From NCBI GenBank assembly GCA_030704615.1, contig CM060732.1:82150001-82214000 (forward strand): a stretch of 64,000 bases of DNA. Reading direction: 5' to 3'. Both the position numbers and the translations under genes were made by a program. Each line of letters opens with the position of its first letter. The stretch's first letter is position 1. This document shows, one piece after another, positions 11,258 through 42,379 of this stretch. The notes under the pieces were generated by a model. It was not told where the DNA came from and did no database searches. It saw only the letters and a program-made list of their open reading frames with translations. Source of the stretch: Takakia lepidozioides (lineage: Eukaryota; Plantae; Bryophyta).

Positions 11258-11259
11258 CT

Positions 11260-11271
11260 TGGTATCAGAGC
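11260..11271 (+). promoter_or_regulatory. Primer binding site complementary to initiator tRNA-Met
   Basis: TGGTATCAGAGC, 2 nt after the LTR-terminal CA. Confidence 0.95.
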
Positions 11272-11311
11272 TTAGAGTTCAGTACGCGATCGTCCTTGGG
11301 ATTGGCCTCAT

Positions 11312-14300
11312 CATGGGGTCGGGCAAGCCGAAGCGAAAGCGGAACGGCCCAAAAGATGATGATCCCGGTGAGCCCGATGGGGGCGACGTGTCACCGAGGC
11401 GGCCGTTTGAGGAAGCGATGCATGTTTCCAAAACGAGGCCGCCAAGAGCGGGAGGAATCCGAGGAGTCGGAGCCCGAGGAATCCTTGAGAGCTCCGACAA
11501 ACCAAGAGATGCCTCCCATGCCGGCAGCCTTTTGGGAAGGGTTGTTGGCGCAGTTTGGCGGGACGTTGAAAGACGTGTTGAAGGCGGCTAATGCCACTTC
11601 CACTAAGGCAAAGTTTAAGGTGAAGCCTAAGGAACCCGACCTTCGAGGGCGTCCAAAATCGGAAGGCACTCAACACCTGGCTCTTGGAGCTAGAGCAGTA
11701 CTTTCGGGCGGCCAAGTTGAGTGACGAGGATCGGGTGGAAGTGGCTCCCACCTATTTGAGGGGCTATGCTCAACAATGGTGGCAGAAACGCCTTCACGAC
11801 CGAGGTCCAAGCCCGGAAACCTTGAACTGGAGTGGGTTCAAGGAATTGATGAAGAGACAGTTTGTGCCCTCAACGCGTCCTGGCTTGCCCGGACAAGATG
11901 AGGAATTTGAAGCAAACAGATGACATTCGGGGGTATGTCCAGGCTTTCAATGTGCTGTTGCTCGAAGTCGCGGACATGGCAGAACCAGAAATGGTCTTCA
12001 ACTTTGTGGCGGGACTGGCCCATGGGCCAGGCGGAAGTTGGAGGAGAAGCCACCTAAGACTTTGAACGAGGCAATTGAGAGGGCTGAATGTTTCTCGGAT
12101 GTCCCTAGGGGTGAGAGACAAGGCCGTACGGAGCTGAACCACAAGAAGACCCGGCGGGAAGGTGACTCCTTCCGACCGGAAAAGAAGTGGGATAGGCCAC
12201 GCGGCGACAATGGCACGTGGAAATCGAAGGGAGGGCCTTCACACGTCAAGGCGGCACCCGGTGCTTCGAAAGGAAAAGCGGGTGGAGCGGCTATGGCGGA
12301 CAGAAGGCGACCTTTGATGGAGTGTGTTTTCAATTGCGGGGAGCCCGGGCACATGGCCAAGAAGTGCACGAAGCCCCGACAATTGAACATGACTCGGGCG
12401 AACCACGGAGCTGTCGGAAGATACCATCAGTCGCTTGGTGGAAGCGGTGGTCGCCAGGACTTGCAAGGTAGGCAAATTTTCTTGTGAGTTGTATCAGGAA
12501 ACTGGCGCCTTACGAAAAGGAGTCAGTTATTGTTCGTGGATGGGATAATATCCGGAACTAATGTGTCGTTGTTGGTGGACACAGGAGCGTCGCACTCCTT
12601 CATGACACCGGCAACGGCACAAAAGCTGGGACTCCCGACAAGTGACGTGGGGCCTCTATTGAGGTGCGTTCTGCCAAAGGAGAACCACAGTTGGCGACAA
12701 GGTTGGCGTTTGATGTTCCTCTTCAACTGGGGAGTTGGGAGGGACGTGAGAACTTCACCATCTGCGAGATCGATGGAGTGATCTCATTTTGGGGATGACC
12801 TTTTTGAGCAAATCCGGAGCGGTCATAGATGGCCGCAAGAGAGTAGTCACGCTGCCATGTGGGAATGGTGGCGAGGTCTTTACGAGTGTCGAAAACGCCC
12901 AAATCCCGTGGGAGGGCGAATAAACCTTCTGTCAGCAAGGGAGTGGGCCGTGGAGGAGGCACACGAGCCCCAGTTTTTGCTTTACATTAGAGAAGTGAAG
13001 GGAGAAGGCGATGGGGAGCCGAGCCCAGATTGGATCAAGGGGATTTTGGAGAAATACCAAGATGTGATGCCGGAGGATTTACCAAGCGGCTTGCCACCCG
13101 CGAAGAGGAGTTGACCACAAGATTGAGGTGATACCGGGATCGGAACCGCCTGCCAAGGCGCCCTACACGGTTGAGCCACAGAGAGTTGGTCGAGCTGAAG
13201 ACTCAGCTCAAGGATCTAATGTCAAAGGGGTACATCCGGCCGAGTAAGTCACCTTACGGAGCCCCGGTGCTATTCGCAGACAAAAAGGATGGGACGCTGC
13301 GGATGTGTGTCGATTACAGGGCTTTGAATAAGGTGACTATAAAAACCGGTACCCTTTGCCAAGGATCGACGACCTCTTTCGATCGGTTGGGGAGCGAAGT
13401 ATTTCAGCCGGATCGACTTGCGCTCCGGCTATCATCAAATTCGGGTGGCGGAAGGAGATGAGGAGAAGACCGCGTGCAGGACAAGGTATGGTTCATATGA
13501 GTTCTTGTGATGCCTTGGGCTCACCAATGCACCGGCGACCTTTAGCACGCTGATGAACAGCCTTTTTCAGGAGTGGTTGGATGACTTTGTGATCGTGTAC
13601 ATCGACGACATCTTGGTGTACTCGAAAACAAAGGAGGAGCACCTGGAGCACCTCAAAAGGGTGTTCCAAAATTGCGAGAAGGGAAGCTGTATGCCAAAGC
13701 TTCAAAGTGCGAATTCGGGGTCACGAAAGTGGAGTTCTTGGGCATGTGATTACACAGGATGGGATCAAAATGGATGACAGAAAGGTGAGGGCGATCTTGG
13801 ACTGGGAGCCTCCGACTTCGGTCCCGGGAGTGCGATCCTTCCTAGGACTCGCCTCCTATTACCGAGAAGTATGTGAGAAATTTCGCCAAGATCGCAGGGC
13901 CGCTGTCGACCTTCTGTGTAAATCTAAAGTCTGGGCATGGAACACCTTTTGTGGCCAAGCTTTTGCTGAATTGAAGCAGCGGATGGCGGAAGCTCCAGTC
14001 TTGAAAATCCCGGAGTTCGATCGTCCATTCGAGATACATACAGATGCGTCGGACTTCGCGATTGGGGGTGTACTGATGCAAGATGGACGTCCAGTGGCTT
14101 ACGAAAGTAAGAAATTGAATGAAGTGGAGCGACGGTGGCCGACGCACGAGAAAGAGATGAAGGCGGTGGTGCACTGTCTTGAGCTTTGGCACCACTATGT
14201 TGGTTCCAACCCAGTGAAGGTGTTCACGGACAATTCAGTCACGGTGAAGTATTTTGCCACGCAGCCCAAGTTGTCCCCAAAACAACTTAGGTGGCAAGAT

Positions 14301-15872
14301 ACTTTGGCGGTGTTCGACGTGGATATCCAGTACAAACCGGGACGAGACAACGTGGTGGCCGATGCTTTAAGTAGAAAGCAGCAGCTCTTGTTGGTGTACA
14401 AGGGCGAGACGGCGCTCCAAAGGAAGATCCGGAAAGCTTGCCGGAAGGATGAGCTGGCAAAGTCCGTGATGCAGGACTTGAGAATGGGGGTTAAATCGCA
14501 GTTCCACTTGCAAAATGGGTGCTGCCGGTATAAGCAAAAGCGTCTCTACGTGCCGAAGGGAGGGATCAGAGATAGCCTCTTGAGAGAATGCCATGATAGC
14601 CCGCTTGCGGGCCACGGCGGAGCCAAGCGCACTGCGGCACTCTTGAAGAAAGAGTATTTCTGGCCCAAACTGAGGGAGGAGGCAGAGGAGTATGTCAAGA
14701 CATGCACCACATGCCAACAAAACCGGAGCGAGTACAAAAAGCAAGCGGGGCTGTTACAACCCTTGCCGATTCCAGACGGGGATTTGGGAAAGCGTCTCGA
14801 TGGATTTCATGACTGCTATGCCGCTGTCAAAAGGATTCGATGCAATCATGGTGGTGGTGGATAGGTTCAGTAAAATGGGCCATTTCATCCCACCAAGGAG
14901 ACGGCAACGGCGCAGGAGACAGGGCGACTTTACTTCGCCCACGTCTTAAAGCATCATGGAGTCCCGAAGGATATTGTCTCGGACTGCGATCCAAAGTTTA
15001 CGAGTAATTTCTGGAGAGCACTTTGGAAGAAGATGGGGTGCCCATCATTTGGGCTGAAGATGAGCACCGCCTTCCGACCTACGACCGACGGCCAAACAGA
15101 AAGAGTGAATTCCGTAGTGAAGCAGATCTTGCGGAATTACGTGTCGGCAGACCAAACAGACTGGGTGGAACACTTAGACGCGGTAGAGTTCTGTTATAAT
15201 AACACAGAACACTCCGCAACGGGAGTTTCCCCTTTCGTATTGGTCTATGGAAAAGCACCTCTGGTGCCGACAAGTTGGGCCGCCCAGGACGTTGAGGAAC
15301 CGGCAGTAGCGGCGGTACTGGAAGAACGCGAGCGTTTGTTGAAGCTCGCAAAGTACAACATTGCCAAAGCTAGGAAACGGTATGAAAGGCAGGCGAATCG
15401 GAAGCGGAGGGAAGTGAAGTTTGAGGCAGGCACGGAGGTCTGGTTGAACATCAAGAATTTCCGACTACCTCCGGAAGTGAGTCCGAAGTTTGTACCTCCG
15501 TATGCGGGACCTTTTCGCATTCGGAAGGTTATGAATGAGGATGTGTATGAATTGGAGCTGCCGGCAAACAGCAAGGTGCACCCAGTATTCCATGTCTCCC
15601 TTTTGAAGCCTTACTTCAAAGATGAAGCGCGCCCGAATCGGCATCAAGTGTTGCGTCCGCCACCTATGCTGTTGGATCATGAAAATGAACCTGAGTACGA
15701 GGTGGAAATACTTAAGTCGAGGAGGTTCAAGAACCGAGAAACGGAGTATCTCGTCAAATGGAAGGGCTATCATCTTGTGGAGGCATCTTGGGTGCGTGCC
15801 TCAGAAATGGGAAACGCATCCGAGGCGGTTGCAGCTTTCGAAGGGCGACCTAAAAAGCGGAAGAAGCGTTGA
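11312..15872 (+). pseudogene. gag-pol of the chromovirus (frameshifted): CCHC knuckle, protease, RT, RNase H, integrase, chromodomain
   Basis: CFNCGEPGHMAKKC; LLVDTGASHSF; YIDDILVY; TDASDFAIGGVL; HDSPLAGH...CTTC; DGQTER; EYEVE...YLVKWKGY...SW followed by PKKRKKR. Confidence 0.93.
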
Positions 15873-17819: not shown

Positions 17820-18013
17820 AAAGCATGCACTTGACATGAAGAAATATGTGTTTTCCTTGACTACTACTTGTAATGGAATGACTGTTCAAGTCCAGTGTCT
17901 CTCAATGTATGTTGTCTAACATCTTTGCTATGCGTGGGTCAATTCATTTGTCGCATTGGTTTGTCATTTTGTTTCACACACAAGAAACTACCTTCAGATA
18001 GACAGATGATCAA

Positions 18014-18210
18014 ATCAACCTTGTGTTAACACGAGGTTCACTTGAAGTTCTCCAAATCCCCCTTGTGTCGAAACAAGGTTGATTTTAGTTCTAAGAAAAC
18101 AACATCGTGTCAACACGAGGTTGATTCGGAGAACTTCATATCAACCTCGTGTTGACACGATGTTGATTTTTGTTCCAGGAAAACAACCTCGTGTTAACAC
18201 AACGCATTTC
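18014..18210. repeat. Diverged copies (~5) of the CAACC...GGTTG palindrome downstream of the transposase
   Basis: For example TCAACCTCGTGTTGACACGATGTTGA at 18141; differences from the 3.2-6.7 kb copies are mainly C>T/G>A. Confidence 0.75.
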
Positions 18211-20310: not shown

Positions 20311-20923
20311 CATTCTTCATTATCTATGAAATTTGTTTCATTTTCGTGTGCGCGATCTGCCTTGAGCGGATGGAACAGCAAAGGTTGGGGGGAAGAGAGG
20401 GTGAGACCTGTTGCACCTTGGGTCGCAACGATGGACGGGCGGGCCGAGACTGTAGCAAGAAGAGACTCCCAGTCCATTTGACCTGGGAGTTGTTGTTAGG
20501 GGCAGCGGATCTTGTGGTTGTGCGGGAGAATGTCATTCTCTATAGATAGTGCAGGAGTGTGACAAAATTCGGTGAGGGTCACTATTTTGAAGTGCGGGAA
20601 TGTGATGTGAGGTCTTATGAGCCTAAGTGGGGAGTGTGCTTGAGTTGTATATTGAAGGAGTATATCCCAAATAGTGTTTATGAGTAGTATTGAGGAAAAT
20701 AAGTTTATCAAGATAGTATATAAACATACTTTACAAGCTAAATTGTACCACAAACCCTATTCATTCTACAAATTGTGTTTGGATGGGGAATAAGAAGAAT
20801 TCCCAAGGCGCAAAGGAGAGGTAGGAGCTGGGCCAGCTAGGGAAAGGGGCGCTAAATGAAAGACGTAATGCTGATTAGAGATAATCTAATGAGTGAAATA
20901 CCAAAAGATGAAGCTCGTAGAGT

Positions 20924-21008
20924 TGTCGTGCGCATACGTATCGCTACACAACTACATCGCTGTCCAAACCACACCACACATATATGCACAATAAAGTAGT
21001 CTGCCACA
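20924..21008. repeat. Repeat Y (85 bp, TG...CA), terminal copy
   Basis: Identical to 21361-21445. Confidence 0.95.
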
Positions 21009-21009
21009 A

Positions 21010-21358
21010 TGATAGAAAAGCTAAGTACACACTGTTGACACAAAACATGACAACCAAAACCATCACTCTTTAAAACAGAAGTCGAGCCAGGGGCACCCCA
21101 AGCTATGGGGACTCCACCCCACAACAACCTACACTCCCATCATAAGCACACTCAGTCCTAAACGATGCAGGAGCTCGGTCACGCAGGCTCAACTCGAGAG
21201 AGATGAGCCGCGCGACTGCCGCTCTCGTGAAGATAAGACGGTTCAGGTGTCAAACTAAACTTGACACCTGATTTAACACTTGACCTAAATCCAAGTGTTA
21301 AATACAAATAACTAGCTTTATTCTAGCTAGTTTCACACTGTGCTTATTTAACTTGACA
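21010..21358. repeat. Repeat X (349 bp, TG...CA), internal copy
   Basis: Matches 34939-35287 with one visible mismatch (21242 vs 35171). Confidence 0.95.
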
Positions 21359-21360
21359 GC

Positions 21361-21445
21361 TGTCGTGCGCATACGTATCGCTACACAACTACATCGCTGT
21401 CCAAACCACACCACACATATATGCACAATAAAGTAGTCTGCCACA
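21361..21445. repeat. Repeat Y, internal copy, preceded on the element strand by the PPT-like AGCTAGGGGGCGAT
   Basis: Identical to 20924-21008; its junction with X is GACA-gc-TGTC. Confidence 0.95.
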
Positions 21446-21705
21446 ATCGCCCCCCTAGCTGGTGGATAGGTCCCTCTAACTCCAGATAGCTACAAGATGT
21501 AATAGCCACAGCCGTACTAAGTCCTCTATCACTGTCCCTATTGCACTCAAACCCTATAGACCAAGAGGCCGGGTACAAGAGTAGCCCCATCGTTAGTCGC
21601 CGTCTTGCAATCTGTGAACTTGAGCCAGGACCTCGTGTGTTCAAGGTCTCCTAGTAGCTGGGCCTTGCGTTTCTTGTTAGCCTTCCATGGTTGTATCCAC
21701 TCCCA

Positions 21706-23818
21706 CTATCCAATGCAATGTGGACATAACCAATCCCCATCCGGAACCATCTCAAGAGGTGGAGTCAAGCATCCCATATGCCAACCTCTAGAGCATCGAT
21801 CACACACCAGCATGGTGGCTACTCCTTTAGCAGACCCACACAACATGCACCTCAAACCTGCAGATACCACTGCCAGGTTTGGGTCAATCCTGCCATCGAC
21901 ATTCGGAAGGTGACATGGCGCACAATTACGCACATGGTCCTTCCAAGTTATGCCATCCCGACCCTCCAAGACCAAGACGCCTGAGGGCAAGACCTCTCGA
22001 ACCCTCAAAATAACACATCCTGCAGTCACATCCAAGGTCGTAGGAGCAGTCTGCTGCAGATAGACATAGTCACCAGGGTTGAATCTCCGAACCCCAGGAC
22101 GATAGCCCCCACCACGTATGGTAGCATACCTCAACGTATCACGGTGTTGTGCAATGGCAAGGTTCTCGAAAGCCATGGGCATGACTCTCTTGAACAACTC
22201 TGCACGCTGCTCACATGCACGTGCCCACACGTCCGGATCGTCAAGGTTAAGAACTGTAGCAGCTTCTCTGCGAATGGATGTAGGCAAATCCGGCTCTCGG
22301 CCAAAGAGAAGAAAGTATGGTGAGAAGGAGGCAAGTGATGCTTGCTTGCTGAACCTGTAGCCCATGGCTAACCAGGGTAACTGAAGGTCCCAATCTCCTA
22401 GGTGTCCCTTCTGCAAGCCATACTTGCGCAAACCCCTCTTTACTGTCTGAACAACTCTCTCTGCCAAGCCATCGGCCTCAGGATGATCCCGAGAAGTGGT
22501 GCGGTGGTCTATCAAGGCCTTGTCACACAACGCCTGAAACTCCCCCCAAGAACTCTCTCCCTTGGTCCGTGAGTACCTCAGCTGGAGCACCGAATCGGCT
22601 AAGCACACAATCCAAGAATGCATACGCAGCTCCCTCACTAGCCTTATCAGGCAATGGAACCAATTCAATCCACTTGGAGAAGTGCTCCACCATCACCAAC
22701 ACGTACTTGTTGTGGCGCATGGTCAGTGGCAACGGCCCTGCGAAGTCAAGACTCCACCTGTAGCCCAATCCCATGATCGGAAGAGGGTGCAATTGTGGAG
22801 TAGGGGCGTTGAATGAAGCACGCACCCTGTCACACACCATGCACCTAGCCACAAATTGTTGCACCTCTGTGTGCATACCACGCCACCAATACTGCCCCTG
22901 CAGTAGACTATGAGTGCGTCGCACCCCAAAATGCCCCAACTCCTCATGGGCATGGCGCACTAACCGTGCCCGCTGTGTTGGGCGAGGCACAATCCTCACT
23001 CGACCATCCTCCCACACTCGGAGCAGGTGTGTCCCCTCCCACTTGAACCTCTTGGCTCGTTGTAGGATCCGATCCCTCTCCTTGGCAGTCACAGTGGCTG
23101 CCGTGTCTCCAGTGCGGAGGTAATCCAACACAACTGAATCCTCATGTATATCTTTGGCACCACCTTGCTCATTGCTGGCCTCAGGGTCCTCAGACACTTG
23201 ATCTACAGTCATCCCTGTTGCAGGTCCAACCTGGCCTTCCGCTGCCAAGATACACAGAAATGCAGATGCATGCCATCCGGGCACCATCTCCTCGTCCGTC
23301 TCACCATGCCACCGAGCTCCAGTGTCATCCTGTTGGCTCGTGCATGGATTGCGACTCAACCCATCTGCATTGCGATTGACCAAACCCGGTCGATGCACCA
23401 CCTGAAAGTCATACTCTTGAAGGATGAGTGCCCACCGTGCAAGCTTCCCCGTAAGCTTGTCTGACTCCATCAACCACTTGAGTGGTTGGTGATCCGTGAC
23501 AAGGGTGAAGAGATTGCCGTATAGATAGCACCTGAAGTGTGCCACGGCCCACACTGCAGCTAAGCATTCTCCCTCATATGAGCTATACTTAGACTCTGCA
23601 GCATTGTTCGAGCGACTAGCATAAGCCACTACGAACTCTCTTCCCTCATCATCCACCTGTGTGAGCACCGCTCCAAGCCCCAGCATGCTCCAATCTGTAT
23701 GCAGCTGAAAAGGACGCCCCCTGATAGGTCGTCTCAAGATGGGCGCCGAGGTCAACCTCGCCTTGAGCTCTTGAAAAGCTTGTTCTTGCTCATCTTCCCA
23801 CTGCCACTCCTGGTCCAC
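21706..23818 (-). CDS. RNase H plus DDE integrase with C-terminal PHD finger (one frameshift near 22545)
   Basis: LHTDWS...YEGECLAAVWA...TDH (RNase H); HEELGH...CMVC (HHCC); SLDF, LTDQG, GLAER (D,D,E); CMLC...MLVCDRCSRGWHMGCLTPPLEMVPDGDWLCPHC (C4HC3 PHD). Confidence 0.92.
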
Positions 23819-23832
23819 CTTGGTCAGCTTGG

Positions 23833-24760
23833 TTAGAGCCTTTGCAATGGCACTGAATCCCTTAACCGTCTGTAATAGTTTGCTAACCCCATGAAAGCTC
23901 GAACTCGGCTCACATCCGTGGGGCGTGGAACCTGTGCAATGGACTCTACCTTAGTCTGCTGTACCCCCAATCCTCCAGGATATATCATGTGACCCAGATA
24001 CTCAATCTGGTTGTGGAAAAACTTGCACTTGCCCGGATGTAACTTCAATCCGTGCGTCCTTAAGCGCTCAAATACCCCCTGAAGGTGTCTCTCATGCTCC
24101 TCCACCGTAGCACTAAAGATGATGATGTCATCTATGTAGCACCGAGCAAACTCCACCCCTGCTAGAATCCTGTCCATGACTCTTTGAAACTCAGCGGGAG
24201 CGTTTTTAAGCCCAAATGGTAAGAACCGCCACTGGTATAGGCAATCCTTCCCGTGCTCATTGATCCCCCAGAATGCCGTCTTTTGCTTATCCGCCTCCTT
24301 GATCGGCAACTGGTGATATCCGGATCGTAAATCCAACGTGCTAAAGACCTTGGAATGCCCAATGGCATCAAAGATCTCCTCTGGTGTTGGCATGGCATAC
24401 CTATCGGACTTGGTCTGACGATTTACAGGCCGGTAATCACCGCACATACGTCTCTCCGTCCAATTGCCATAGACATCCTTCTTAGCTGGCATCACTGTGG
24501 CTGAAGCATACTCTCCACCAGAGAGCTCCACCAAAACCTGCCTCCCAGAGATCTTGAGTCCTCATCTGAATCAAAGACCTCTCCATGTCACTGTATCTAT
24601 AGGGTCTCCGAAAGATTGGCGTGTCAGTGGCCAACTCAATACAGATCTCTTGACCCTTCAGTGCTCCCAAGTCCTTCAAACTGAAGGCAAAGCAATTCCT
24701 GTAAGCCCTCAGGAACCGCCGTATACGTCGTCTCTCTCCTCCGGTGACAATGGGTCCAAT
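23833..24760 (-). CDS. Ty3/gypsy-type reverse transcriptase (frameshifted at both ends)
   Basis: [43 protein letters not shown]...YLGH. Confidence 0.95.
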
Positions 24761-25159
24761 GTCAGGCTCCCAATTGTCCTCCGTAACTGCAACCTTAAGT
24801 CCAGTGGGCTTAGAGGTAGAGGACGCGTCCCGTGGTTGCTATGCTGCAACCTCTTGAGCAGTACTCCCTTCCTGCTCAGTCAATGACAAGGCCTCATCCT
24901 GCCCCATCATCTCATCATTGAGAACCTCCTCAACCCGAGAAGAATCCCCAACCTCATCCATCACAGCTGCCTTGGCTGCCAACTCCCTCTGAACCTCGAG
25001 CACCTCCCACGTGTGCCATGGATGTCTACACCCCGTGGTCCTCACCGGCTCGCCCCCACTCGCTGCCTGTACCGTCTCGGTAGGCAGAGAGACCATGAAG
25101 GGGAGTGCACTCCGCACTCTACGTTGCTCAGCCATAGCCAAGCTGATAATCCAGGTCAA

Positions 25160-26090
25160 GCAATTGAGATCCATTGCTTGCCCCAACACCTGACACCGTG
25201 ATGCCTCAGAAAGAGAAGGCACCGCCGTGGTCCCAGTGGAAAACCCCATAGCCCGCTCTCGCTCGTCGGCATTAGGCTCCACTAACTGCTGCAACTGAGC
25301 ATCCCACAGGAGGCCAGGTCCACCATCCCGAAAAGCATGGGATCCTGGGAAGCTGAGCAGTGTAGGTAATGTTGCTCGTGGTTGACCCAACCTGTTGACC
25401 ACTGCCAAAGGCGAACGGTCATCGTGTCTCACACGTTGAGACTGCCTTCCTGTGTCCAAAATGCCATCCACGGTGAGGTGTGCTGGCCGCTGCACCCCAT
25501 CAAATGCACGCTTGAGCAGTGCGGGTGGCATCAAGTTAGTCCACCATAGCCGTGGACGATGAGCCCGTGATCCCACTACAGCTGCATCCAGCAGCACTGC
25601 TGACCCAAGCCACGACCGGACTTGATGCACACTGGCCATCACCCTGGCCCGAGAATCGCCCATTAGTGGCACATTCTCCAAGATGTATGCTGGCGATACA
25701 TCTTGTGAAGCTGCAAGTGGCGCAAAATCCGCACCATCTCCCAAAACAAACCCGTCCTCGAGTCTCGCAATCCATTGCCATGCCCGGCTGATGAATGCCC
25801 TTGGCAGGGCCAACCTGCCACTACCAGATCAATGGAGCCAACCTGCTCCAAAATCCGGCGCCCCCAGCAACGAAATGTCTACTGGCAAGGCTTGTTGGTA
25901 TCCACGAACTGCAGACACTGGCAACAAAGCAGGGTACCAACTGAGCAACATGGCAGTGAGACGCGTCGTGCAGTCTCATCATCCTCTCCACATACAGGTA
26001 ACGCCTTTACCCGCACACCTGCCTGTAGCACAGCAGCCAATCGGTGCTGATCCCGCCAAACAAGTCCAGAAGGCAAATGCCTTCATCCGA
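25160..26090 (-). CDS. C5-cytosine DNA methyltransferase domain (DNMT3-like, unpermuted motif order) embedded in pol; frameshifted
   Basis: Across frames: motif I LLDLFGGIST (~26043-26072), IV IDLVVAGWPCQG, VI YILENV, VIII AHRPRLWW, IX ERERAMGF, X QVLGQAMD. Confidence 0.9.
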
Positions 26091-26461
26091 TACTGCCACA
26101 CAATAGGTGTGGTATCCATGGTGACAACTGAGGTGGTCCTGGTTGCAATACCCGCACTCTCCTCCTCTCTTGACGTATACAAAAGCCTCTACCCAGCTTG
26201 TTGCACCCGTCGATCAGCAACCTGCTGCAAATCCTTGCTCGTACCCCACAATGGAGTGTGAGCAACCATGGCAGGCAACTCCGCCATACCATGCATGTCA
26301 TTGCTGGGGTGGTGCAATCCTCTGCATGGGCATTGCCTTTCCAGCAACTCTCCAGGCCAACTAACTGCAGCTGTAAAGGCGGCTAGTGTTGGCATCTTGC
26401 CCCGTTGGGCAGCCACTATACCCCCAATGAATGTCACAGGGAGCTTTGCACGGCAACCATC

Positions 26462-27193
26462 TGTAGTGTGAAAAGAAGGGGCGTGAATCCCCTTCTGTAT
26501 AATTCTAATTGTGCTCCCCTCCATTGATTGCGGAGCAAGAGGAAAGAAGCGTTCTTTCTAATCTGTCCAACTGTCGTCACTTGGCTGTGGGTTTCCCTCA
26601 GCTCCTCCGTGATCAGAGTTCAAGCAATCCTCATCCACGCCGCAGCGGAAGGGAAGACATGGATGGGGAGTCAATTTGTTGTTCACTCTGGTTCTACCTT
26701 TTACACAACATCCCCTATCAGCAGGTACAGCACCAGCTATGCTGGTGCGATGTATTCAGTGATGCAAATCAGCCCAATGGCAGCGGTAAACACGATCCTT
26801 TATGTGAAGCCCACTTGAGCAGTGACAGGTCGGAAATCCCCTTTTTGTAGTGGTGACACAGATTTAGGAGGATGCAGCTCAGATCTTCATGGTCTGCAGG
26901 GGCACTGGTTTCCTTCAGGTTTTCTTCATCTCATCTCCCCAAATTGGCCAAACCCCCCCCCTAACAGCCCCTTAGAATTTGCAGCTCTCTCCTTGCCCAA
27001 ATCCCATTTTTCACTCTCTCTCTCTTTCTTTTCCCTTTTTGTCTGTTTCACTATCTGGTTTATGTCCCCAGGTTCCCCACTATTTCACAGCAGCAGATCT
27101 GTCATGTAATGTGAATGCACACGCTGCTAGGCATCCAGTGCGGCCAGCCTTGAAGTCATCCTCGGTCTCTCAAGACACAGCCATCCCATCCAT

Positions 27194-27246
<53 letters not shown>

Positions 27247-28671
27247 CCCTTTTTTCAATGACCCATCGCTCAAACAGCTCTCATCTCTTTTGTCAGACTT
27301 CAACCCAAATACCCCAACATCCCTCTTTTCCCTTCAACTGTGGAACGCAGTTGTTCAGATCCTGATCCCATAGTGAAATCACCTTATCCTTTCCATGTTT
27401 TTTTGCAACTCCAGCTAACTATCATTGATCTCTGCAAACAAACAAGCCAGATCTACATTGGTTCCAGGTTATCACTACACACGGCAGCATGGTGTTCAGG
27501 TTTATGACACTGAATCAAAATGCAAGAATGAAGACAACAGTGACCATTCTGAATTCAGTGACGAACAGGCTCTCTCTTTCTCTCTCTCTTCACTTATTTC
27601 TCTCACTGTCATCACAACATCAGGTGCATCCATCCTTTCCACGTTCTGGTCTGAAGTTCAGAGTCTCCATTCCCATTTCAAAACTTTTTCTTGTCACATG
27701 TCTCTACCTTTTCTCTTCTGCCAAGATGGCAGTCCTAAATCTACCAAAGCAATTTCTAAGTCCTAGCCAAAAAGACCTTTTGTTCATCGACTTATCTGTT
27801 TTTATCCACTAGTGAAGCGGCGGGTCTGCCTGTCAAGGTGGCACCTTGCCATCGCCCGTCAGCAGCCACTTCAACCCTTTCTCTTTGTCTTGATTCCAGA
27901 CCTTATGACGCCATGATGGCTCCCCTTCTTCACTTGGACCATCCTGTGGCCTGACAACCAGATTACACTATGCAATTCTTCCTCTCGAATTGGCCTGGTC
28001 CTATAACAAGGAGACACAAAGCAGCTAGAAGCTTAATGACAGAGAACCTGAGATACCATGCAGCCAGAACTCCACATGCTTTACCTCCCCCCCATTGATT
28101 GTGCCCAGACCCTCTTCCCTGTGCTTTCAGCAGCTGGCCTTTTCCTTGCTTGCTCATCTGCCCATAACTATCATCTTCAAGGCACTGGCGGCAGTGGTGG
28201 TGCGCCGCTTTCCTTAGATGCTTCTATCTCTTGGAATTGATCATCACTACGAGAGAGGCGGCACCGCTTCTTTCTACACAGAATACCAAGCAGAGGCCTC
28301 TTAATGCCGCTTCCTAAGCCAAGCAAGATCCCACCGCGCAGGTACAACCTCCTAACACAGGCTGCCCTGCCGACACCACTGCTTGCAACAGCCGCTACGA
28401 GCCATCCGTCATCTTCCTCTTCGTTTTTCTCAACCCGCGATCTTTTAGGTCAAGAACCAGTGATGAAAACGTTCATCGCATGGATGAAAATGTGTACCGT
28501 CATGACTTAGCCATTTTCTCCTGGCAAAGCATAAGTTCAGTGTGCTCATGAAATTACCTACATGAAGGGATACATCCTTTCTGCAGTTTGGGATGACGGG
28601 CACTCCGTCATAGTGATGTAGGTCGTAATGGTAAACATATGTAATGTTCTGTCCCCTGCATTCACACTACA
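26462..28671. mobile_element. 2,210-bp non-coding insertion with TGT...ACA ends, 11-bp TIR and 4-bp TSD (Ginger-like or solo-LTR-like)
   Basis: Ends TGTAGTGTGAA...TTCACACTACA, flanked by CATC on both sides. Removing it restores the frame WQSGD|GCRAKLP between the protease and the DNMT linker. Confidence 0.85.
27197..27243. repeat. (CT)n microsatellite
   Basis: Uninterrupted CT run of ~46 bp. Confidence 0.95.
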
Positions 28672-29329
28672 CATCGCCTGACTGCCATCCAGGCCTGTAG
28701 GATGCTGACTCCTCCCAAAAGTCCAGGGTGAAGCCCATGGGGTATAACACTGCCCCACCAACGAGGACATCGTAAGAGACCGCGTCTGTCACAATGGCCT
28801 TGGCTCGCATTACTGAGCCATCGATAGGATGATCCGGCTGCAGTCTAATGGCCAACTGATGCCGTGTCATGCCCCGAGCCTGCTCTGATCCTCCCAGAGA
28901 TGTCTGTATCTGGAAAGGACAAGGCTCCATATCCGCCTCCATGAGGCCCAAACCTTCAATAGCAGCTCTGCCCAACATCAGTGGCTGAGCTCCCGAGTCC
29001 AACAAGACCCGCAGTGGCCGGTACTTCTTGCCTGCCGGTCCACTCTGGTTGTCTAACAAGACAACTCCAGGTGTCACCATGGCGCGCTCAAAGGCTGGCC
29101 TAGCTGGCAGCTCCGTCAACCTGGCAGCTGCAGCTTGCCAGGGCGCATCCGTGGCAGTCTTGACCCTCAAATCCGAGGATCCCTCTGCCACTACACCTTC
29201 CACTAACTCCGCAAAAGATGAAGTGACCTCCCCACTCTCACAGAGTGTTGCTGCTAGTCTGAACACTGCAGCTGGCCTTACCCCCGGCGTCGCAATCATG
29301 GTTGCCAAGAACAGTGGGGCTTGACACAC
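28672..29329 (-). CDS. Aspartic protease region of pol
   Basis: RVLLDSGAQPLML...YDVLVG. Confidence 0.85.
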
Positions 29330-31221
29330 AGAGGTGGCTGCCCCAATAACACACCGGCTGCACTAGCCTTGGTAGCAGGTGTCAGTGCTGCACGTGTAGC
29401 TCTCCCCAATGGCATAGTAACCTCCGCCTCGGTAACAGTCGGGCGAGAACTAGGTGCCATGGATGGCGTCGACACAGTCTCCGCCAATGTGAATGACTGA
29501 GGAAGCCTCGCCTGACGGCTTGCCTCCCCACGCTGTGGATCCAATTCCACCTCTGCACCTCGTGGCTCAGGAACTCGTGCTGCTCCTCGAGTCACGGCTG
29601 CAGCAGACTCCACCTGCTCTAGTGGTAGTGCTGCTCCGCACATGAATCCCATGCCTCCCATATCTCCTCCCTCAGGAGCAGGAGGTGGACCATCCCGCCT
29701 GGGAGCCGGTACCGCCTGAGCTATAGCCATGGCAGCGAGCCTCTGCTCTAGCTGCTGAAGCCGATTGGCCATGCCTTGGTCAACACCCTGACTTCCGCGT
29801 CCTTGGCCATGTGGAGCTTGCCCTTGGCCTGCACCTCGTGCCCGACCACCTCGTCCTCTTTGGGCTGGTCCACCTCGCCCCCGGCCACCATTGTTCCCTT
29901 GGAACTGGCCTGGGCGCAACTCAGGATGCAAGTCATAACACTGGGCATCTCCATGCCCATACTTGCCACAATGCCCACACTGCAACTGTGCAGGCTGTGC
30001 TTGTGCCGGCCTTTTGCCACTCTCTGGGCAATCTCTCTTGACATGGGGTCCTCCACATGTCCAACATATCACCCCTGGTTGCTGTTGGCCTGCAAAAGAT
30101 GCCACGGGCCTCTGCACCTGAGGTCCCCTGTAAGCTCCATGGAACTTGGGCTGGGCAACCTTGCCCCCCTGACCACGCTGTTGGGCAGTCCCTTGTGCCT
30201 GTGGGCTGATAGCTGTGCCCCGTGCAGGCATGTCCTTGCCAAATCCAATTGTAACAACTCGCTCCTCCACCATGTTGAGCTCAATCCGCTCAGCCAGCAG
30301 AAACACATCTGCTAATGTGGGTTGGGCTGCTTGTAACAGGGTTGCATCTCGCACCCTTCTCTTGAGCTCCTTGTCCAGAATTCCATACCAAAACTGGATT
30401 GCCTGAGCTTCAGTAACCCCTTGGGTCACACTTATCAAGCGCCTCATACGAGTGTACGCCTCTCGCAGGCTCTCACTGGGTTTGCGCTGGAAGTCTTGCA
30501 AACTTCGCAGCTTCTCTGTCCGTACACCTTGGTAGTTCCTCCGCAACTCCTGGAAGAACTCCACCACCGGGTTGAATCTAGGCACATGTGTTGTAGTCGT
30601 GGCAGGAGGAATAGTAGCACCTTTTGAACTGGTACCACCTGCAGAAGTACCAGCACTACTTGCTCCACTACTAGTGCTGGCAGTGGGAGCTATTGGTACT
30701 GATGCAGCTACTGGTCGCTTCGTGCCTCGAGTAATGGAGACGTAGTCAGGTGACCAATACATCCTCCACTCCTCAATCTCTGCTTCATGTCCTCGCCTGA
30801 ACTCGTGGTAATCGTCCATAGGCGGGCCTTCCAAATGCTGGAACAGTCCCTTCCACGCCATGAATGGGGTGAATAGCTGTGGATTGCGCATCTGCTGCAA
30901 ATCACACCAGCTGTCGAACTCCTGGATAAAGTCATCCAACTCGATTGTGCCCACAGCTCCAGAGTACCTACGAGGCCCCTTGGTAGCTCCATACATCTCC
31001 TCCATGTCGTCCCACAACAATGGCGAATGAAAGTGCACACCTGTTGATGAAGCCTCCGAGTCTGTGTCTGACTCTACAGTAATTGAGGGTGGCGGTGAAG
31101 GTGGTCTGAACCGAATACCTCGTCTTGTGAACCCACTCTCACTGTTACTGCCTGTAGCCGTACTCCCCTCAAAACCCTTGGGTAACTCCGTAATGACACT
31201 CACAATGTGCACCTCCTCCAC
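29296..31221 (-). CDS. Gag with two CCHC-type zinc knuckles and an RGG-rich segment
   Basis: 641-aa open frame; retrotransposon-gag-like FQRKPSESLREAYTRM; CWTCGGPHVKRDC and CGHCGKYGHGDAQC. Confidence 0.9.
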   Translation of the reverse strand: MEEVHIVSVITELPKGFEGSTATGSNSESGFTRRGIRFRPPSPPPSITVESDTDSEASSTGVHFHSPLLWDDMEEMYGATKGPRRYSGAVGTIELDDFIQEFDSWCDLQQMRNPQLFTPFMAWKGLFQHLEGPPMDDYHEFRRGHEAEIEEWRMYWSPDYVSITRGTKRPVAASVPIAPTASTSSGASSAGTSAGGTSSKGATIPPATTTTHVPRFNPVVEFFQELRRNYQGVRTEKLRSLQDFQRKPSESLREAYTRMRRLISVTQGVTEAQAIQFWYGILDKELKRRVRDATLLQAAQPTLADVFLLAERIELNMVEERVVTIGFGKDMPARGTAISPQAQGTAQQRGQGGKVAQPKFHGAYRGPQVQRPVASFAGQQQPGVICWTCGGPHVKRDCPESGKRPAQAQPAQLQCGHCGKYGHGDAQCYDLHPELRPGQFQGNNGGRGRGGPAQRGRGGRARGAGQGQAPHGQGRGSQGVDQGMANRLQQLEQRLAAMAIAQAVPAPRRDGPPPAPEGGDMGGMGFMCGAALPLEQVESAAAVTRGAARVPEPRGAEVELDPQRGEASRQARLPQSFTLAETVSTPSMAPSSRPTVTEAEVTMPLGRATRAALTPATKASAAGVLLGQPPLCVKPHCSWQP

Positions 31222-31740
31222 GTGACACTATAAGGCTCTAGTACTAATCTAATAGTGACACGGGTGGGCACCTGTTGCAGTTTAAGGGTCATATCCCAAT
31301 GGCTCAGGGCACCTGCACCTGCATCCACCGCAAGAACTCCTATGGTTGGCTGGTCATCAACCCAGCCTCACCATAGAAGAAACACTGGTGGTCTTGCTGG
31401 TCATCACTCCAGCCTCACCACCGACAGCATACTCTAGGATTGACCGGTGATCAAATCCGGCCTAATCCCTATGAAAGCAAGCGCCCACACAAAACCAACA
31501 TGGCGCACAGTCAAGCATGCAGGTGTTGGGGGGGATCCAAACACAAGAAATCAAAACATCAACACCCCCACACCAAAATCCAGCTGCAATGCTGATCCTG
31601 CAGAATAGCCCAGCCCAAAACCCCGGACTGACTGGCCTCCACCAAGAGAGGCTTTGGCAACTACAAGTACAAGGTAATGAAAATAGTACAGAGATGGAGG
31701 GGAAGAATAGAAGCCCGACCAAGCAAGATCTAATCCTGAT

Positions 31741-32490
31741 CTATGCTATCAACTGCCAGACTTCTCTCAAAGTGCCTCGCTCTGCATGATGGTAAGGTGT
31801 AGGAGGTATATCTATGTCCAGAAACCTGCCACTAACCTTGTCCCAAGCTACAGTAGCTCGCTCTAACCAACCCTCCTCCTCTTTCTGCCAGGTAGAGACA
31901 AAGCAATACTCCCCTATCTCCCGCTCACTGAACACTAAGGAAAACAAAGGTAGGGTCTGATAGTCTCTCAACTCGAAAGCTTTGAGACGGTTGCGGGTGT
32001 CCTCATTGCGAATGACTGCATCTCCTTCACGCACAACAAACATGTCATTGCTAATGAACCCCCGCTCGTGGTTGCCCTGTGCAGAGCGTATCCGGCTGCA
32101 ACCATGTCTGATTGCACAAACTTGTGTAGCTCCTGCTCCTCTGCTCCAGTACACCACGGCCTTGTGGCTGAACACCTTGGTCCCCGGGGCTGTCTTTGGC
32201 TGTGTTCCAAGCCTAGCTTTCACCCACTTTGGTATTTCACCTACAGCTGCAGAACTGCTGGCTCCAACAGAGTTCTGACTGTCCAAGGCGATATTGAGGC
32301 CCTCAATGCCAATTACAGCAGTCTGTTGTCTACTGCTAATGCCTGACTCCCAGTATGCAATCAACTCGTCCAACTGTTCTCCCCTCAAATCAGTCTGAGT
32401 TCCTTGGGAAACATAAATCCTGTCCCCTTGTGTGCACAGGCTAAGAGAAGAGACTTGCCCTTCAATTACGTCCTCATTTCCCCCAGCCAT
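31741..32490 (-). CDS. Orphan ORF (249 aa) upstream of gag on the element's sense strand; function unknown
   Basis: ATG start, uninterrupted, globular-looking composition; no motif recognised. Confidence 0.6.
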   Translation of the reverse strand: MAGGNEDVIEGQVSSLSLCTQGDRIYVSQGTQTDLRGEQLDELIAYWESGISSRQQTAVIGIEGLNIALDSQNSVGASSSAAVGEIPKWVKARLGTQPKTAPGTKVFSHKAVVYWSRGAGATQVCAIRHGCSRIRSAQGNHERGFISNDMFVVREGDAVIRNEDTRNRLKAFELRDYQTLPLFSLVFSEREIGEYCFVSTWQKEEEGWLERATVAWDKVSGRFLDIDIPPTPYHHAERGTLREVWQLIA

Positions 32491-33039
32491 ACAAGGAATA
32501 CATCCCCAGATTTATCTCTCATGTAGACCAGAACAGGTTCTAGAAACAGGATTGTGGATCTTTCATGGCACACTCACACTCTAAAAATTCCATAGATTTC
32601 TAGCAGAGTCCCAAAAACAAAAACCAGGTCTAGATAGGTAGATATCCCCTTTCTGCAGCTATCCCCCCAAAAACTGGGTCAAACAGAGTCCATTTGACAA
32701 AGATATGACCAATTTGGCTTTAAATCATTTAAATTAGATCAAAATGCCCTGTTTTTTTTTTTTTTTTTTTTTTTTAAGGTTTTCAAATTTAAAAATTTAA
32801 AGTTACACCCAAACTATCTGGTAACTGGTTCCCGGTTCCCTATGTTCTATATGGTTTCCTAGGTTCCTTGGCCACGTGCCCTATAATTCACACCTTGCTC
32901 CAGTCTTCTGCATACCGAGAGTGAGAGAGAGAGAGGGAGGGAACTGTGGCACTCAGTAGTGTCTTGCTGTGAGAGAGAGTGGTGTCAACATTCCGTGATT
33001 GCTTGCAGGCTTGCGCACCAAGAGAGGGGGAGGAAAGAC

Positions 33040-33335
33040 ATGTTTATGGACGCCATGTACAGGCGAGGGGTCACTCACAGTCTGTTCGAGGCCTTGGTGG
33101 CTAACGATAAACTCACTGAGGAGGATTACCAGCGGGAAGCACTGGACTTTGTGCTGGAGCTTGCGGGTCCCCGGCCCATTCCAGTTACGGGGGAGAAAGC
33201 CCTCGGCACTGATGCGTTTGTCTATGTCGATGAGCTGCCGGTTCCTGCGTTTGCTGTTGATTGTAACATGCGATGTGTGTTGTGGAACAAGCGCGCTGCT
33301 GATCTCAGTGGCTGGCTTGAGTCTGATGTTGCCAC
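33040..33335 (+). pseudogene. Captured fragment with a PAS-domain N-terminal half (phytochrome/sensor-kinase-like)
   Basis: VDELPVPAFAVDCNMRCVLWNKRAADLSGW resembles the PAS consensus (P.FAVD..G....WN...A.LTG). Confidence 0.55.
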
Positions 33336-33722
33336 CATCTCTTTTTTAGATTCAGCATCAAATTCTAGTTGGTCTCCTTTTTCTGAAAGTCTTTCGTCAT
33401 TGCACCCTCTCTGTCTCGCAGGAAGATTACACGGCATTGTCCGCCCTTTCTCTCTTGACACGGCCTGCAGCCTCGTACTCTCCTTGCGGTCTTCACCTTT
33501 ACTTTTGCTTCCCCTAATATTAGTCAAATGGTACGGACACCCCCTTTGGTCTCCGATTCCGCAGCTTTCTCCTCTCCTCCAGCTTTAGCTTCGCAGCCTG
33601 TCTCAGGGTTGTCTTCTCTTGATCCGTCAATGTCTTTCTCTAACTTGCTTCGGTCGGAAATAGCAGCCTCATTAGGTGAATCTTCCGATGGTCTGTCAGC
33701 CTTGCAACCAGGCTCGACAAGT

Positions 33723-33972
33723 CTTGCCGTGCAGAGGATGGCTCACCCTGACGGTGAGCTGGCCACTGCAAGAGCAGTATCTGCTGCTGGCACAGTCATG
33801 ACCCTGTCATCATGGGCAACCAGCAGTGTTGAAGAGGTTGCATCAGTAGGTCCTGGCATCCGCTTCTTCCAGCTTTACGTATACAAGGGCAGAAATGTGG
33901 TTGCACAATTGGTACGCCGAGCAGAGCGTGCAGGTTTTAAGGCCATTGCCCTCATTGTGGACACCCCTCGTA
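33723..33972 (+). pseudogene. GOX: Captured intronless glycolate oxidase fragment
   Basis: [80 protein letters not shown] is near-diagnostic for plant GOX. Confidence 0.93.
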
Positions 33973-34400
33973 CTCGAATGTCATAGGGCAGAATGCCATT
34001 CAGGGATGTATGCGAGAATTGTAACTGGTCAAAGCAATATGGAGTCACAAAATGAGCCACCTGACCCCAGGCATGAACACCAGCATCTGTGCGGCCTGCA
34101 GCGCAAAGAAGCAGCTGATCACGTGTGCATCTGGTCACCTTGGCCAGTGCATCCTCTACCAAGTACTGCACTGTCACACCGTTTGCCCTTGACTACAGTC
34201 GCCACCCTGAGTAATTGGTGCCTTCACAGGAGATCACCAACCTCCATTTCCATGTGGGTTTGCTCTCCACGCCGACTTCAGTTTGAGTGAGCTCAACGCC
34301 ACTGTGAGGAGTCTCGAAGGTTGAAAGCCCGTTGTCTGGCTTCGCACTCTTAGCACGATTCATCTGACCACTGCGACAGCTATAGGGAGTTCTAAGTTCC
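33968..34400 (-). pseudogene. Captured intronless tRNA pseudouridine synthase A (TruA family) N-terminal fragment
   Basis: KWRLVISCEGTNYSGW...TVQYLVEDAL...AGRTDAGVHAWGQVAHF...[12 protein letters not shown]. Confidence 0.9.
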
Positions 34401-34424
34401 TTGTAAACCCAACCCCCATCGTTG

Positions 34425-34515
34425 TGCCTTATCACGATGGGCCCGTTCTTGTAGGGACAAATGGAACTCTTAACATTTATACCATCTACTACGGTACTTT
34501 CACTGCTGCCCAGCT
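34425..34515 (+). pseudogene. Captured EXORDIUM/Phi-1 family N-terminal fragment
   Basis: YHDGPVLVG...LNIYTIYYGTFTAAQ matches the YH.GP.L...I..IWYG.F...Q motif. Confidence 0.65.
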
Positions 34516-34924
34516 AGTACCCCTTATGCACAGCCCACATAATCCTTCTCCCCCAACAAGCCCACTGGCCTGCTCAACACAAAGCCCAGCGAAGGCCCTC
34601 AACGAGAAGACCCCCGGCGCCACTGACACCACGCCCCCGCAGCCTCTCCATACGCCTGGGCCAGTTACCGGATCACCACACGCACCTCGCACCTCGCAAG
34701 TAGCTTCACTGGCGCGACTCCTCAAGCTTCTCCAACATGCTGTGATTCTGGATGGGCTACTCTTTATTTGAGCAGCATGCTGTGGACGCCGAGCTACCAC
34801 TCATTGAAGAAGAACGCTCCGGATTCGAACTGCAAAGCATTGGCCTCTGGCGACCATCTCTACTATAATAGTGCTTAAAAACAAAAACATCATATCTAGC
34901 TTAGCACTGGCAAACTAGATAGAG

Positions 34925-34939
34925 TCATCTCTCTCGAGT
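34925..34939 (-). promoter_or_regulatory. Putative self-priming primer binding site
   Basis: Exact 15-bp reverse complement of 35121-35135 inside repeat X; there is no tRNA-type TGG PBS. Confidence 0.7.
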
Positions 34940-35287
34940 GATAGAAAAGCTAAGTACACACTGTTGACACAAAACATGACAACCAAAACCATCACTCTTT
35001 AAAACAGAAGTCGAGCCAGGGGCACCCCAAGCTATGGGGACTCCACCCCACAACAACCTACACTCCCATCATAAGCACACTCAGTCCTAAACGATGCAGG
35101 AGCTCGGTCACGCAGGCTCAACTCGAGAGAGATGAGCCGCGCGACTGCCGCTCTCGTGAAGATAAGACGGGTCAGGTGTCAAACTAAACTTGACACCTGA
35201 TTTAACACTTGACCTAAATCCAAGTGTTAAATACAAATAACTAGCTTTATTCTAGCTAGTTTCACACTGTGCTTATTTAACTTGACA
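34939..35287. repeat. Repeat X (349 bp), 5'-terminal copy of the element
   Basis: Matches 21010-21358; followed by the TSD GAGT. Confidence 0.95.
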
Positions 35288-35532
35288 GAGTAGCTCGGAA
35301 CGTTTGAAAGGAAAATTCTAGGGAAAGACTATAAACTTTAAAGGTTGTCACCTAAGCATGTTTCGGGAGAGGATGGCATATTTTTCATGTCCATCATTAT
35401 CTATATTCAATCAATATTGTTGAAGTCAAATCACATTTATTATATTATATTGTTTGCAATATCTCATTTAATCTCCCCTCACTTTTGTCATAACAATTGA
35501 CAAAACCCTTCATAGTTTGCACTTTATCATTA

Positions 35533-40964
<5,432 letters not shown>

Positions 40965-41940: not shown

Positions 41941-42379
41941 CAAAATTATAACAAATATGGTTGTACCGCCTTTTTCGGGTGGGCCCTATTGGTTCGTCAT
42001 TTATTCATTTCACTTTCATTTCACTTTCATTTCACTTCCATCATTCTTGGATCATATATAAGGGAGCAGGGTCACCAAGCTCCTCACTTTTTTTGGCGCA
42101 AACACTTGAGGTTGCTTTGGATGTTCTCTTCCATTGAACGAGAGTGTAGCCCAAGAGGAGGGTGTGCACCTCTTGCCGTTGTGGCTTCCACCAAATCCAC
42201 TTCAGCAGATTGTGTATAAGCTCAACACTACAACCCACATCGACCCACTTGGGTTGCTAACAGGTGTAGAAGTGTTGGGCTATCGCATTGCACCCTACAT
42301 TCACAACACGTTCATTTATAGGTGACTGTTTTTTGTTGTTTACATCGCTAGGGCCCAGGGGAGTGGATATTGGGTGAAG

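Follow-up and report, generated by a model that had tools for sequence, protein, structure and literature searches.

The locus described here raises the question of why a retrotransposon should carry both a C5 cytosine methyltransferase (DNMT) and a chromatin-reading domain, and of how it would express and use them. The window, by which we mean the whole stretch of 64,000 nucleotides (nt) analyzed from Takakia lepidozioides (contig CM060732.1, positions 82,150,001 to 82,214,000), contains on its minus strand, as determined by six-frame translation, a Ty3/Gypsy element of 14,364 bp (20924..35287; all coordinates are those of the window). A preliminary description, made from the sequence alone, had recognized in it a DNMT between protease and reverse transcriptase (RT) and a PHD finger at the end of the integrase. 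According to our analysis, the element inserted recently and is dead; its high-copy Ty3/Gypsy family belongs to the lineage of KnitGypsy-Dnmt3, an element of Klebsormidium nitens, and the DNMT is a trait of this family.

The DNMT occupies 25121..26085 and contains C5 motifs I (26072-26043), IV (GWPCQG, 25815-25798, with the catalytic cysteine at 25806-25804), VI (ILENV, 25684-25670), VIII (25561-25541), IX (25264-25241) and X (25186-25169). The canonical order I, IV, VI, VIII, IX, X, previously reported between the protease (29005) and the RT (24138), is thus confirmed on the minus strand, and since the motifs are not circularly permuted (VI–X before I–V), a DRM enzyme was excluded. The profile check proposed at that stage was also positive, as PF00145 (3.6e-11 for the piece with motif IV) and PF00628 both match above their curated cut-offs; the Pfam matches within the element are DNA_methylase, RVT_1, RT_RNaseH, Integrase_H2C2, rve and PHD. 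For profiles, folding and trees, intact natural relatives took the place of the broken copy. A 19-sequence profile compared with the sequences of solved structures retrieved DNMT3A best (6e-17), then DNMT3B/C, with HaeIII at 4e-6 and DRM2 at 0.01, and the AlphaFold model of the intact relative P0002 (pLDDT 78) matched DNMT3A at 7e-19, all listed Foldseek rows being DNMT3A/B/C. By sequence and fold the methyltransferase is DNMT3-like, and not of the DRM, DNMT2 or bacterial type.

Relatives carry the domain in the same place. Among the best 80 of 153 metagenome loci, a protease precedes the DNMT in 55 (with a gap of <600 nt in 54), an RT follows it in 57, and both neighbors are present in 40. 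One search returned 65 longer DNMT relatives, headed by Calypogeia (77%), Marchantia (72–74% identical) and Sphagnum, and 945 cluster representatives match with E values of no more than 0.001 (150 of the 945 listed); viral contigs yielded no relative, as none of 127 pattern matches was confirmed. In the three runs typed as DNA, the summed contig depth, which gives no copy number, is similar over the DNMT, the RT and the integrase. This copy does have private host gene fragments, a nested insert and many indels, some of them maybe assembly errors, which would suit a DNMT that is an assembly artefact or a host gene captured by this copy alone. However, the DNMT holds the same position in the 40 loci with both neighbors and in named proteins of Marchantia, Calypogeia, Sphagnum, Closterium and Klebsormidium, so that private capture was rejected, and we give this alternative practically no weight.

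The DNMT is also under purifying selection. The catalytic cysteine is present in all 46 single-frame domains, and the glutamate and the asparagine of motif VI in 45 of 46 each; dN/dS is 0.12–0.24 in the eight between-lineage (subfamily) DNMT pairs with measurable dS. Some observations weigh against this interpretation: 41 of the 46 domains contain stops, most loci belong to one decayed subfamily, including repeat assemblies of one insertion, and within that main decayed subfamily dN/dS is 0.33–0.53 for the DNMT and 0.36–0.60 for the RT. Of the outcomes that were to have undone the preliminary description, namely siblings without the DNMT, or dN/dS near 1 with loss of catalytic residues, neither occurred.

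The domain order differs between two groups of relatives. In bryophytes, Closterium and Klebsormidium, gag, protease and DNMT precede the RT, while the order RT–RNase H–DNMT–integrase–PHD is found in Scenedesmus and Pleodorina and, in partial proteins, in Monoraphidium, Volvox and Tetrabaena. In a 79-row tree of element DNMTs only (quick search without bootstrap, midpoint root, chlorophyte-type rows thinned at random), a single branch (SH-aLRT 95) separates the two orders, with 41 DNMT-before-RT rows, K. nitens included, on one side, and with the window DNMT in a 17-row set together with Calypogeia and Marchantia (support 99). The K. nitens integrase groups with streptophyte-type rows (93), in a weak quick tree that has a long-branch outgroup and half of the window row out of frame. 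The differing DNMT position in chlorophytes and streptophytes reflects either one domain relocation or two captures. Separately, we observed that chlorophyte-type relatives often continue beyond the PHD finger into a further methyltransferase-like domain at the C-terminus (56 of the 332 family proteins compared, e.g., P0050, P0113, P0260). DPWxGxG and SP[PW]F motifs occur in many, the nearest Atlas clusters are phage class I S-adenosylmethionine-dependent methyltransferases (0.95), and many of the 56 proteins look degenerate. This would be an element with a DNMT3, an amino-methyltransferase and a PHD finger, parallel to but distinct from the EpiLTRs compared below.

How the DNMT is expressed depends on what follows it. 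The preliminary description had placed it within pol; its location between protease and RT stands, but it ends the Gag–protease frame and a conserved stop follows, so that a single pol frame does not simply hold both the writer and the reader. Here the stop, between DNMT and RT, is an in-frame TAG (24841-24839) succeeded by CAA CCA (24833..24841 in all), a UAG-CAR-YYA motif of the type that directs readthrough in tobamoviruses (PMC3542737). A linker pattern matched 47 of 81 rows, the window being among the 34 not covered or unmatched, and 44 of these 47 loci have a stop at this place (33 TAG, 11 TAA), with CAA (41) or CAG (2) as the next codon. The stop is present in the window's subfamily and in at least three others; across 24832-24843 no variant reaches 5% in four runs, and neighboring sites vary. 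No in-frame methionine lies between the stop and the RT start in this copy or in L079, and many database proteins end 66–190 residues past the DNMT.

These contexts make readthrough of the stop likely. Gag–protease–DNMT would then be the bulk product, and the particle would likely contain the DNMT in the same abundance as coat protein; occasional readthrough of the conserved UAG would supply the RT, RNase H, integrase and PHD finger. Three points speak against readthrough: the strict CARYYA context is found at only 6 of the 44 stops; 36 of the 44 read CAACCC, and this main peat-moss-type subfamily has an ATG two codons on, where reinitiation is an open alternative; and in the more distant relatives P0058, P0090, P0059 and P0064 the DNMT is fused to the RT without a stop.

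The remaining coding region has the Ty3/Gypsy order of gag, protease, RT, RNase H and integrase. Gag (29340..31005) contains two CCHC knuckles (30066-30028 and 29979-29938), with a frame break near 29340 in this copy; the aspartic protease (28672..29359; LLDSGA at 29005) has a weak Pfam match and is 52% identical to Marchantia P0008. A linker and the RT (YIDD at 24138) occupy 23854..24799, with a frame break near 24533, followed by RNase H, an H2C2 zinc finger and a DDE integrase (D 22747, D 22567, E 22461) at 21850..23866, with a frame break near 22542, and by the C4HC3 PHD finger at 21706..21849 (stop at 21708-21706). Other Ty3/Gypsy hallmarks, a primer-binding site (PBS), a polypurine tract (PPT) and a short target-site duplication, are likewise present. 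The element lacks two complete terminal long terminal repeats (LTRs), having instead one complete LTR unit inside an A-body-B-A-B arrangement, and it lacks the chromodomain that ends the integrase of chromoviruses, the PHD finger being there instead. DIRS, PAT and Ngaro elements have a tyrosine recombinase and are not known to make a target-site duplication; membership in these groups was excluded by the rve integrase and the 4-bp duplications. An Rfam search of 20500-36000 gave no match.

The split repeats noted earlier are confirmed, in the form A1-body-B1-GC-A2-B2. A1 (34939..35287) and A2 (21010..21358), of 349 nt each, are identical at 348 positions, and B1 (21361..21446) and B2 (20924..21009) at all 86. 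The termini TGTC...GACA are flanked by an exact 4-bp duplication, ACTC (5′ copy 35288..35291, 3′ copy 20920-20923), and the B1/A2 junction forms a perfect 10-bp palindrome, GACA-GC-TGTC (21355..21364), which the element ends reproduce without the 2-nt spacer. The PPT (21450..21460) lies directly before B1, with the same motif in seven relatives whose junction is intact, and the PBS (34925..34938) immediately after A1.

The PBS is not tRNA-like. Fourteen nucleotides within A1 (35122..35135), the predicted self-primer and likely RNA 5′ end, are complementary to it, confirming the complement previously noted; none of 10,000 shuffles reached 13 nt, and the self-primer region folds with a z-score of −3.9. 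Primer and PBS differ among three subfamilies yet stay complementary over 14, 15 and up to 16 nt; the two co-vary in L051, L045 and L056. Priming by tRNA was excluded, since the PBS begins with TGG in none of 19 relatives. Although a self-primer match of at least 9 nt was found in only 9 of 19 decayed copies, which weakens the case, we regard self-priming of the kind described for Tf1/Tcn1 (PMC6317226) as very likely from the co-variation.

The anatomy of the ends bears on integration. As the PPT abuts the start of B and the PBS abuts the end of A, the LTR expected from reverse transcription is B-GC-A; the inserted element, however, begins and ends at the GACA-GC-TGTC palindrome inside this unit, minus its two middle bases. 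In peat-moss-type relatives, likewise, the PPT is followed by B, two bases, A and B again, the palindrome with a 2-nt spacer is kept in relatives, and the 4-bp duplication is exact in 8 of 10 two-ended copies (the window included) and has one mismatch in the other two. At aberrant A/B joints, filler or PBS letters remain (L042, L023), and in L036 and L040 internal sequence directly adjoins B, so that the A/B joint looks like joined free DNA ends; B1 and B2 show no fixed difference. On this basis we consider it fairly probable that reverse transcription yields a normal cDNA with a B-GC-A LTR, that the two cDNA ends become joined, and that the integrase would open the left-hand palindrome, drop the 2-nt spacer and insert A-body-B-GC-A-B. 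Integrase cleavage at 2-LTR circle junctions reportedly has a counterpart in HIV-1, and the circle junctions of IS3/IS30 are a further precedent for cleavage at an internal junction. The integrase of spumaviruses cleaves palindromic 2-LTR junctions (PMC1180852).

Opening of a circle leaves an asymmetry unexplained, since a cut at the right-hand palindrome would give A-B-A-body-B. With repeat assemblies of one insertion merged and L030, L042, L051, L008 and L011 excluded, none of 21 distinct 5′ ends is A-B-A, while 9 of 22 3′ ends are B-A (p 0.0014), which counts against the proposal and excludes symmetric cutting of either palindrome; the thirteen 3′ ends that stop at B1 fit B–B recombination or cutting at both palindromes. 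A route like that of DIRS/PAT elements would explain the asymmetry: the RNA would run to the end of B2, the linear cDNA would end at the start of A and the end of B, and the integrase would trim 2-nt GC extensions conventionally, with no internal cleavage. The lack of A-B-A 5′ ends, the precision of the A/B joint in most copies and the resemblance of the layout to DIRS-like repeats agree with this route. However, the conserved PPT and PBS set the cDNA ends at the start of B and the end of A, the joints of L042 and L023, with their PBS or filler letters, resemble products of end joining, and B1 and B2 share minority letters more often within a copy (8 over 6 pairs) than between copies (13 over 30 pairs), mostly owing to L067. 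We judge the DIRS/PAT-like route unlikely and retain end joining followed by opening of the left-hand palindrome. In L051 (8541-9030), the PPT is followed by B-GT-A and then the PBS again, as would result from a collapsed assembly, from a one-LTR circle or from a tandem copy.

That a C4HC3 PHD finger ends the integrase, at the place of a chromodomain, was borne out by a PF00628 match of 2e-10 on the last 45 residues, and a PHD finger follows the integrase in 22 of the 23 loci with room for it. Among 60 of 82 matches listed, the nearest solved PHD fingers are those of CHD4, PHF12, KDM5B/A, ATXR5, DPF3, PHF21A, BAZ2 and UHRF1, most of which bind the unmethylated histone H3 tail; no ING or BPTF domain is among these 60. 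Readers of H3 trimethylated at lysine 4 (H3K4me3) have, two residues before the zinc-binding histidine, a tryptophan of the aromatic cage. This residue is glycine in 133 of the 140 family PHD fingers with a full core. The aspartate after the third cysteine, which contacts the tail in H3-binding PHD fingers, is kept in 131 of the 140, and no conserved acidic residue just before the first cysteine was found among them. The finger therefore probably binds the H3 tail unmethylated at K4, to judge by these residues; that it steers integration is conceivable, though rather doubtful. It may equally be no targeting device at all, supporting the folding of the integrase or binding another protein, with insertion not guided by histone marks, a reading that we take seriously while holding it short of probable. 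The target duplications show no sequence preference and the acidic residue is missing, as this would predict; retention of the finger at the chromodomain position from chlorophytes to land plants, and of the aspartate in nearly all copies, speaks against it.

As to the writer, the DNMT in the particle would methylate CG sites of the element's own cDNA, a proposal that we favor slightly. CG at codon boundaries is avoided in the element (odds ratio 0.16). As a control we used a frameshifted, DNMT-less chromovirus on the plus strand of the window (about 11200-15870; with SH3 and, at 14874-15869, a chromodomain), in which CWG is depleted and CG is not (odds ratio 0.65, not significant). The comparison of target-motif depletion suggested earlier gives a strong loss of CG in the element, but this loss is not specific. 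Other transposon-like open reading frames (ORFs) in the window are also CG-depleted (0.35; difference from the element p 0.001), as are the nested insert and the captured segment described below (CpG observed/expected 0.41 and 0.59), and the family member L050 is not (0.67, p 0.17), a lack of specificity that counts against the proposal. CG loss fits long-term CG self-methylation, and host enzymes could cause it as well. In moss, DNMT3b methylates CG and CHH sites de novo (PMC6453930). SymbioDIRS-Dnmt3 domains, from a retroelement of Symbiodinium, methylate CG de novo, and the isolated KnitGypsy-Dnmt3 domain, a further point against the proposal, gave no methylation in yeast, a result that its authors call inconclusive (PMC5890265).

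Alternatively, the DNMT could be maintained because it binds nucleic acids or acts as a decoy of the host DNMT3, or its targets could be host loci or, once integration is complete, the new insertion, rather than the cDNA in the particle. The inactivity of the Klebsormidium domain in yeast (PMC5890265) would be expected under such a role, as would a CG loss that extends beyond the family and that L050 lacks, and the replacement of PC by EC in motif IV of chlorophyte relatives (59 of 174 domains, with PC in 67 and 42 unmatched). Set against these points are the near invariance of the catalytic cysteine, glutamate and asparagine, the de novo CG activity of the related SymbioDIRS-Dnmt3, and the fusion to Gag, which would put the enzyme inside the particle; we consider a role other than cDNA methylation unlikely.

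The copy itself is dead, owing to indels and a 2.2-kb nested insert. Compared with its siblings it has 12 best-supported indels, with 114 further rows, and the coding region is broken; within the DNMT, several indels between about 25700 and 26090 spread the motifs over several reading frames. The insert (26462..28671), of 2,210 bp with 11-bp terminal inverted repeats and a 4-bp duplication of its own, lies between protease and DNMT and is confined to this copy, as siblings join across it (joint 26457-28672, in four of four runs). It has TG...CA ends, a GA microsatellite and medium copy depth, and is possibly a solo LTR or a non-autonomous element of another family. The near-identity of the repeat pairs indicates a young insertion, so that the former claim of a recently active element holds for the insertion; the copy, its coding region broken, is not active alone. 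That the repeats are nearly identical while the coding region is ruined would fit mobilization of a defective copy in trans, or errors in the assembly.

Between the PBS and gag, a low-copy 5′ segment (32900..34925; summed depth far below that of the element core) contains host gene fragments identified by Pfam: a tRNA pseudouridine synthase in sense, and FMN-dependent dehydrogenase/glycolate-oxidase-like and PAS-domain pieces in antisense. These appear intron-free and adjoin an A-run (32748-32780), and the segment looks like an mRNA capture. A 256-codon open frame upstream of gag (31741..32511) is probably no conserved gene: it has no Pfam family, no match in the 80 loci and Atlas hits only below 0.9. 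That the genome is of land-plant type is supported by a flanking subtilase, nearest to that of the moss Ceratodon (49%), which makes a bryophyte host likely.

Elsewhere in the window, a 108-nt direct repeat (10757 and 17001) may mark the ends of the chromovirus, and a short palindromic repeat of ~25–30 nt clusters at 3134-3904, 6310-6720 and 17999-18169, probably as subterminal repeats of a DNA transposon. There are also a 48–50-nt palindromic tandem array (41528-41957), a 45/117-nt tandem array in an SP-repeat-rich ORF (46843-47211) and a dispersed palindromic repeat around transposase-like ORFs (47500-53813).

Taken as a whole, our explanation, a copy of the KnitGypsy-Dnmt3 lineage with a Gag-linked, self-methylating DNMT, a pol expressed by readthrough, and integration by palindrome opening, appears to us reasonably probable. 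A bolder version, which we regard as improbable, would make this an old green-lineage family with a DNMT3 at Gag abundance, in which the cDNA ends are joined, the DDE integrase opens the circle at one of two identical palindromes, the choice possibly following the element's own methylation of the CG beside the cut, and the PHD finger delivers pre-methylated DNA to chromatin unmethylated at H3K4; if true, this would be a replication cycle not described for LTR elements. Use of an internal palindrome by a DDE integrase as the normal route would by itself be unusual among them. Since 2018 it has been an unsettled question whether DNMTs carried by transposons methylate the cDNA of the element itself (PMC5890265), and the only Gypsy enzyme assayed, inactive in yeast, comes from a little-used alga. 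With close relatives in the genetic model Marchantia polymorpha, self-methylation becomes testable on single domains and natural cDNA, and its linkage to Gag hints at a reason why particles would contain much of the enzyme. As there are no paired terminal LTRs, LTR finders may miss such elements. Marchantia P0004, P0005, P0008 and P0221 are element ORFs annotated as host genes, an example being Mp_8g17980, labelled DNA cytosine-5 methyltransferase in UniRef; with such annotations in Marchantia and Sphagnum, DNMT counts may be inflated.

Among known systems, the closest is KnitGypsy-Dnmt3, a Gypsy element of K. nitens with a non-permuted Dnmt3 under purifying selection (Ka/Ks <0.2; de Mendoza 2018, PMC5890265) and, according to the legend of Fig. 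4c of that article, DIRS-like split repeats. It thus shares with the present element the Dnmt3 in the Gypsy polyprotein region, the split repeats and the selection; K. nitens GAQ93235 has the order CCHC–protease–DNMT and KFL_015960010 an integrase–PHD fusion, both as here, and the DNMT falls on the same side of our tree. The differences are that the host here is a land plant and that a stop separates DNMT from RT, where the K. nitens protein is partial and PMC5890265 puts the DNMT in Pol. The text of that article mentions neither PHD fingers nor Marchantia, and its readable supplements no PHD finger, although one could be drawn in Fig. 4c or the main supplement; self-priming, the stop and an integration mechanism are absent from its examined parts. 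The claim that split repeats, self-priming and a DNMT had not been described together therefore needs qualification, since the split-repeat Dnmt3 Gypsy is known from Klebsormidium; self-priming of such an element did not appear in the literature searched. Nor did we meet a description of the range across bryophytes and chlorophytes, of the stop, of the co-varying self-primer or of a B-GC-A LTR opened at an internal palindrome with a 4-bp duplication, in a search that left most subscription papers and Repbase reports outside.

Other systems share single features. SymbioDIRS-Dnmt3 likewise carries a Dnmt3 in a retroelement with A-body-B-A-B repeats and two coexisting domain orders, cDNA self-methylation was proposed for it, and CG activity was shown in yeast; it differs in having a tyrosine recombinase in place of a DDE integrase and is an independent capture (PMC5890265). 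EpiLTRs/DAM-LTRs are also LTR elements with a methyltransferase writer and a chromatin reader, but combine a DNMT4-related enzyme with DAM and a chromodomain; the accessible part of that preprint (bioRxiv 10.64898/2026.05.21.726589) regards 'streptophyte Gypsy-DNMT3' as an acquisition that is separate and already known, and mentions neither Marchantia nor PHD fingers. The Tf1/Sushi and Tcn1 chromoviruses, which occur in mosses, are similarly self-primed and end their integrase with a chromatin reader, but have ordinary terminal LTRs, a chromodomain and no DNMT, and the survey describing them, as far as available, mentions no PHD finger, methyltransferase or Marchantia (Neumann 2019, PMC6317226). 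The spumavirus integrase, too, is a DDE integrase that cuts an internal palindrome of two abutted ends; there, however, the palindrome is the end-to-end junction (PMC1180852), while the palindrome of the present element is internal to U3, and its end-to-end junction is retained within the inserted copy. The stop context in the window matches the tobamovirus motif exactly (PMC3542737), although here readthrough would set the ratio of Gag–protease–DNMT to RT–integrase. In sum, the Takakia element belongs, as a land-plant member, to a lineage that is known but has barely been studied, and it has a variant expression strategy and an unusual integration anatomy.

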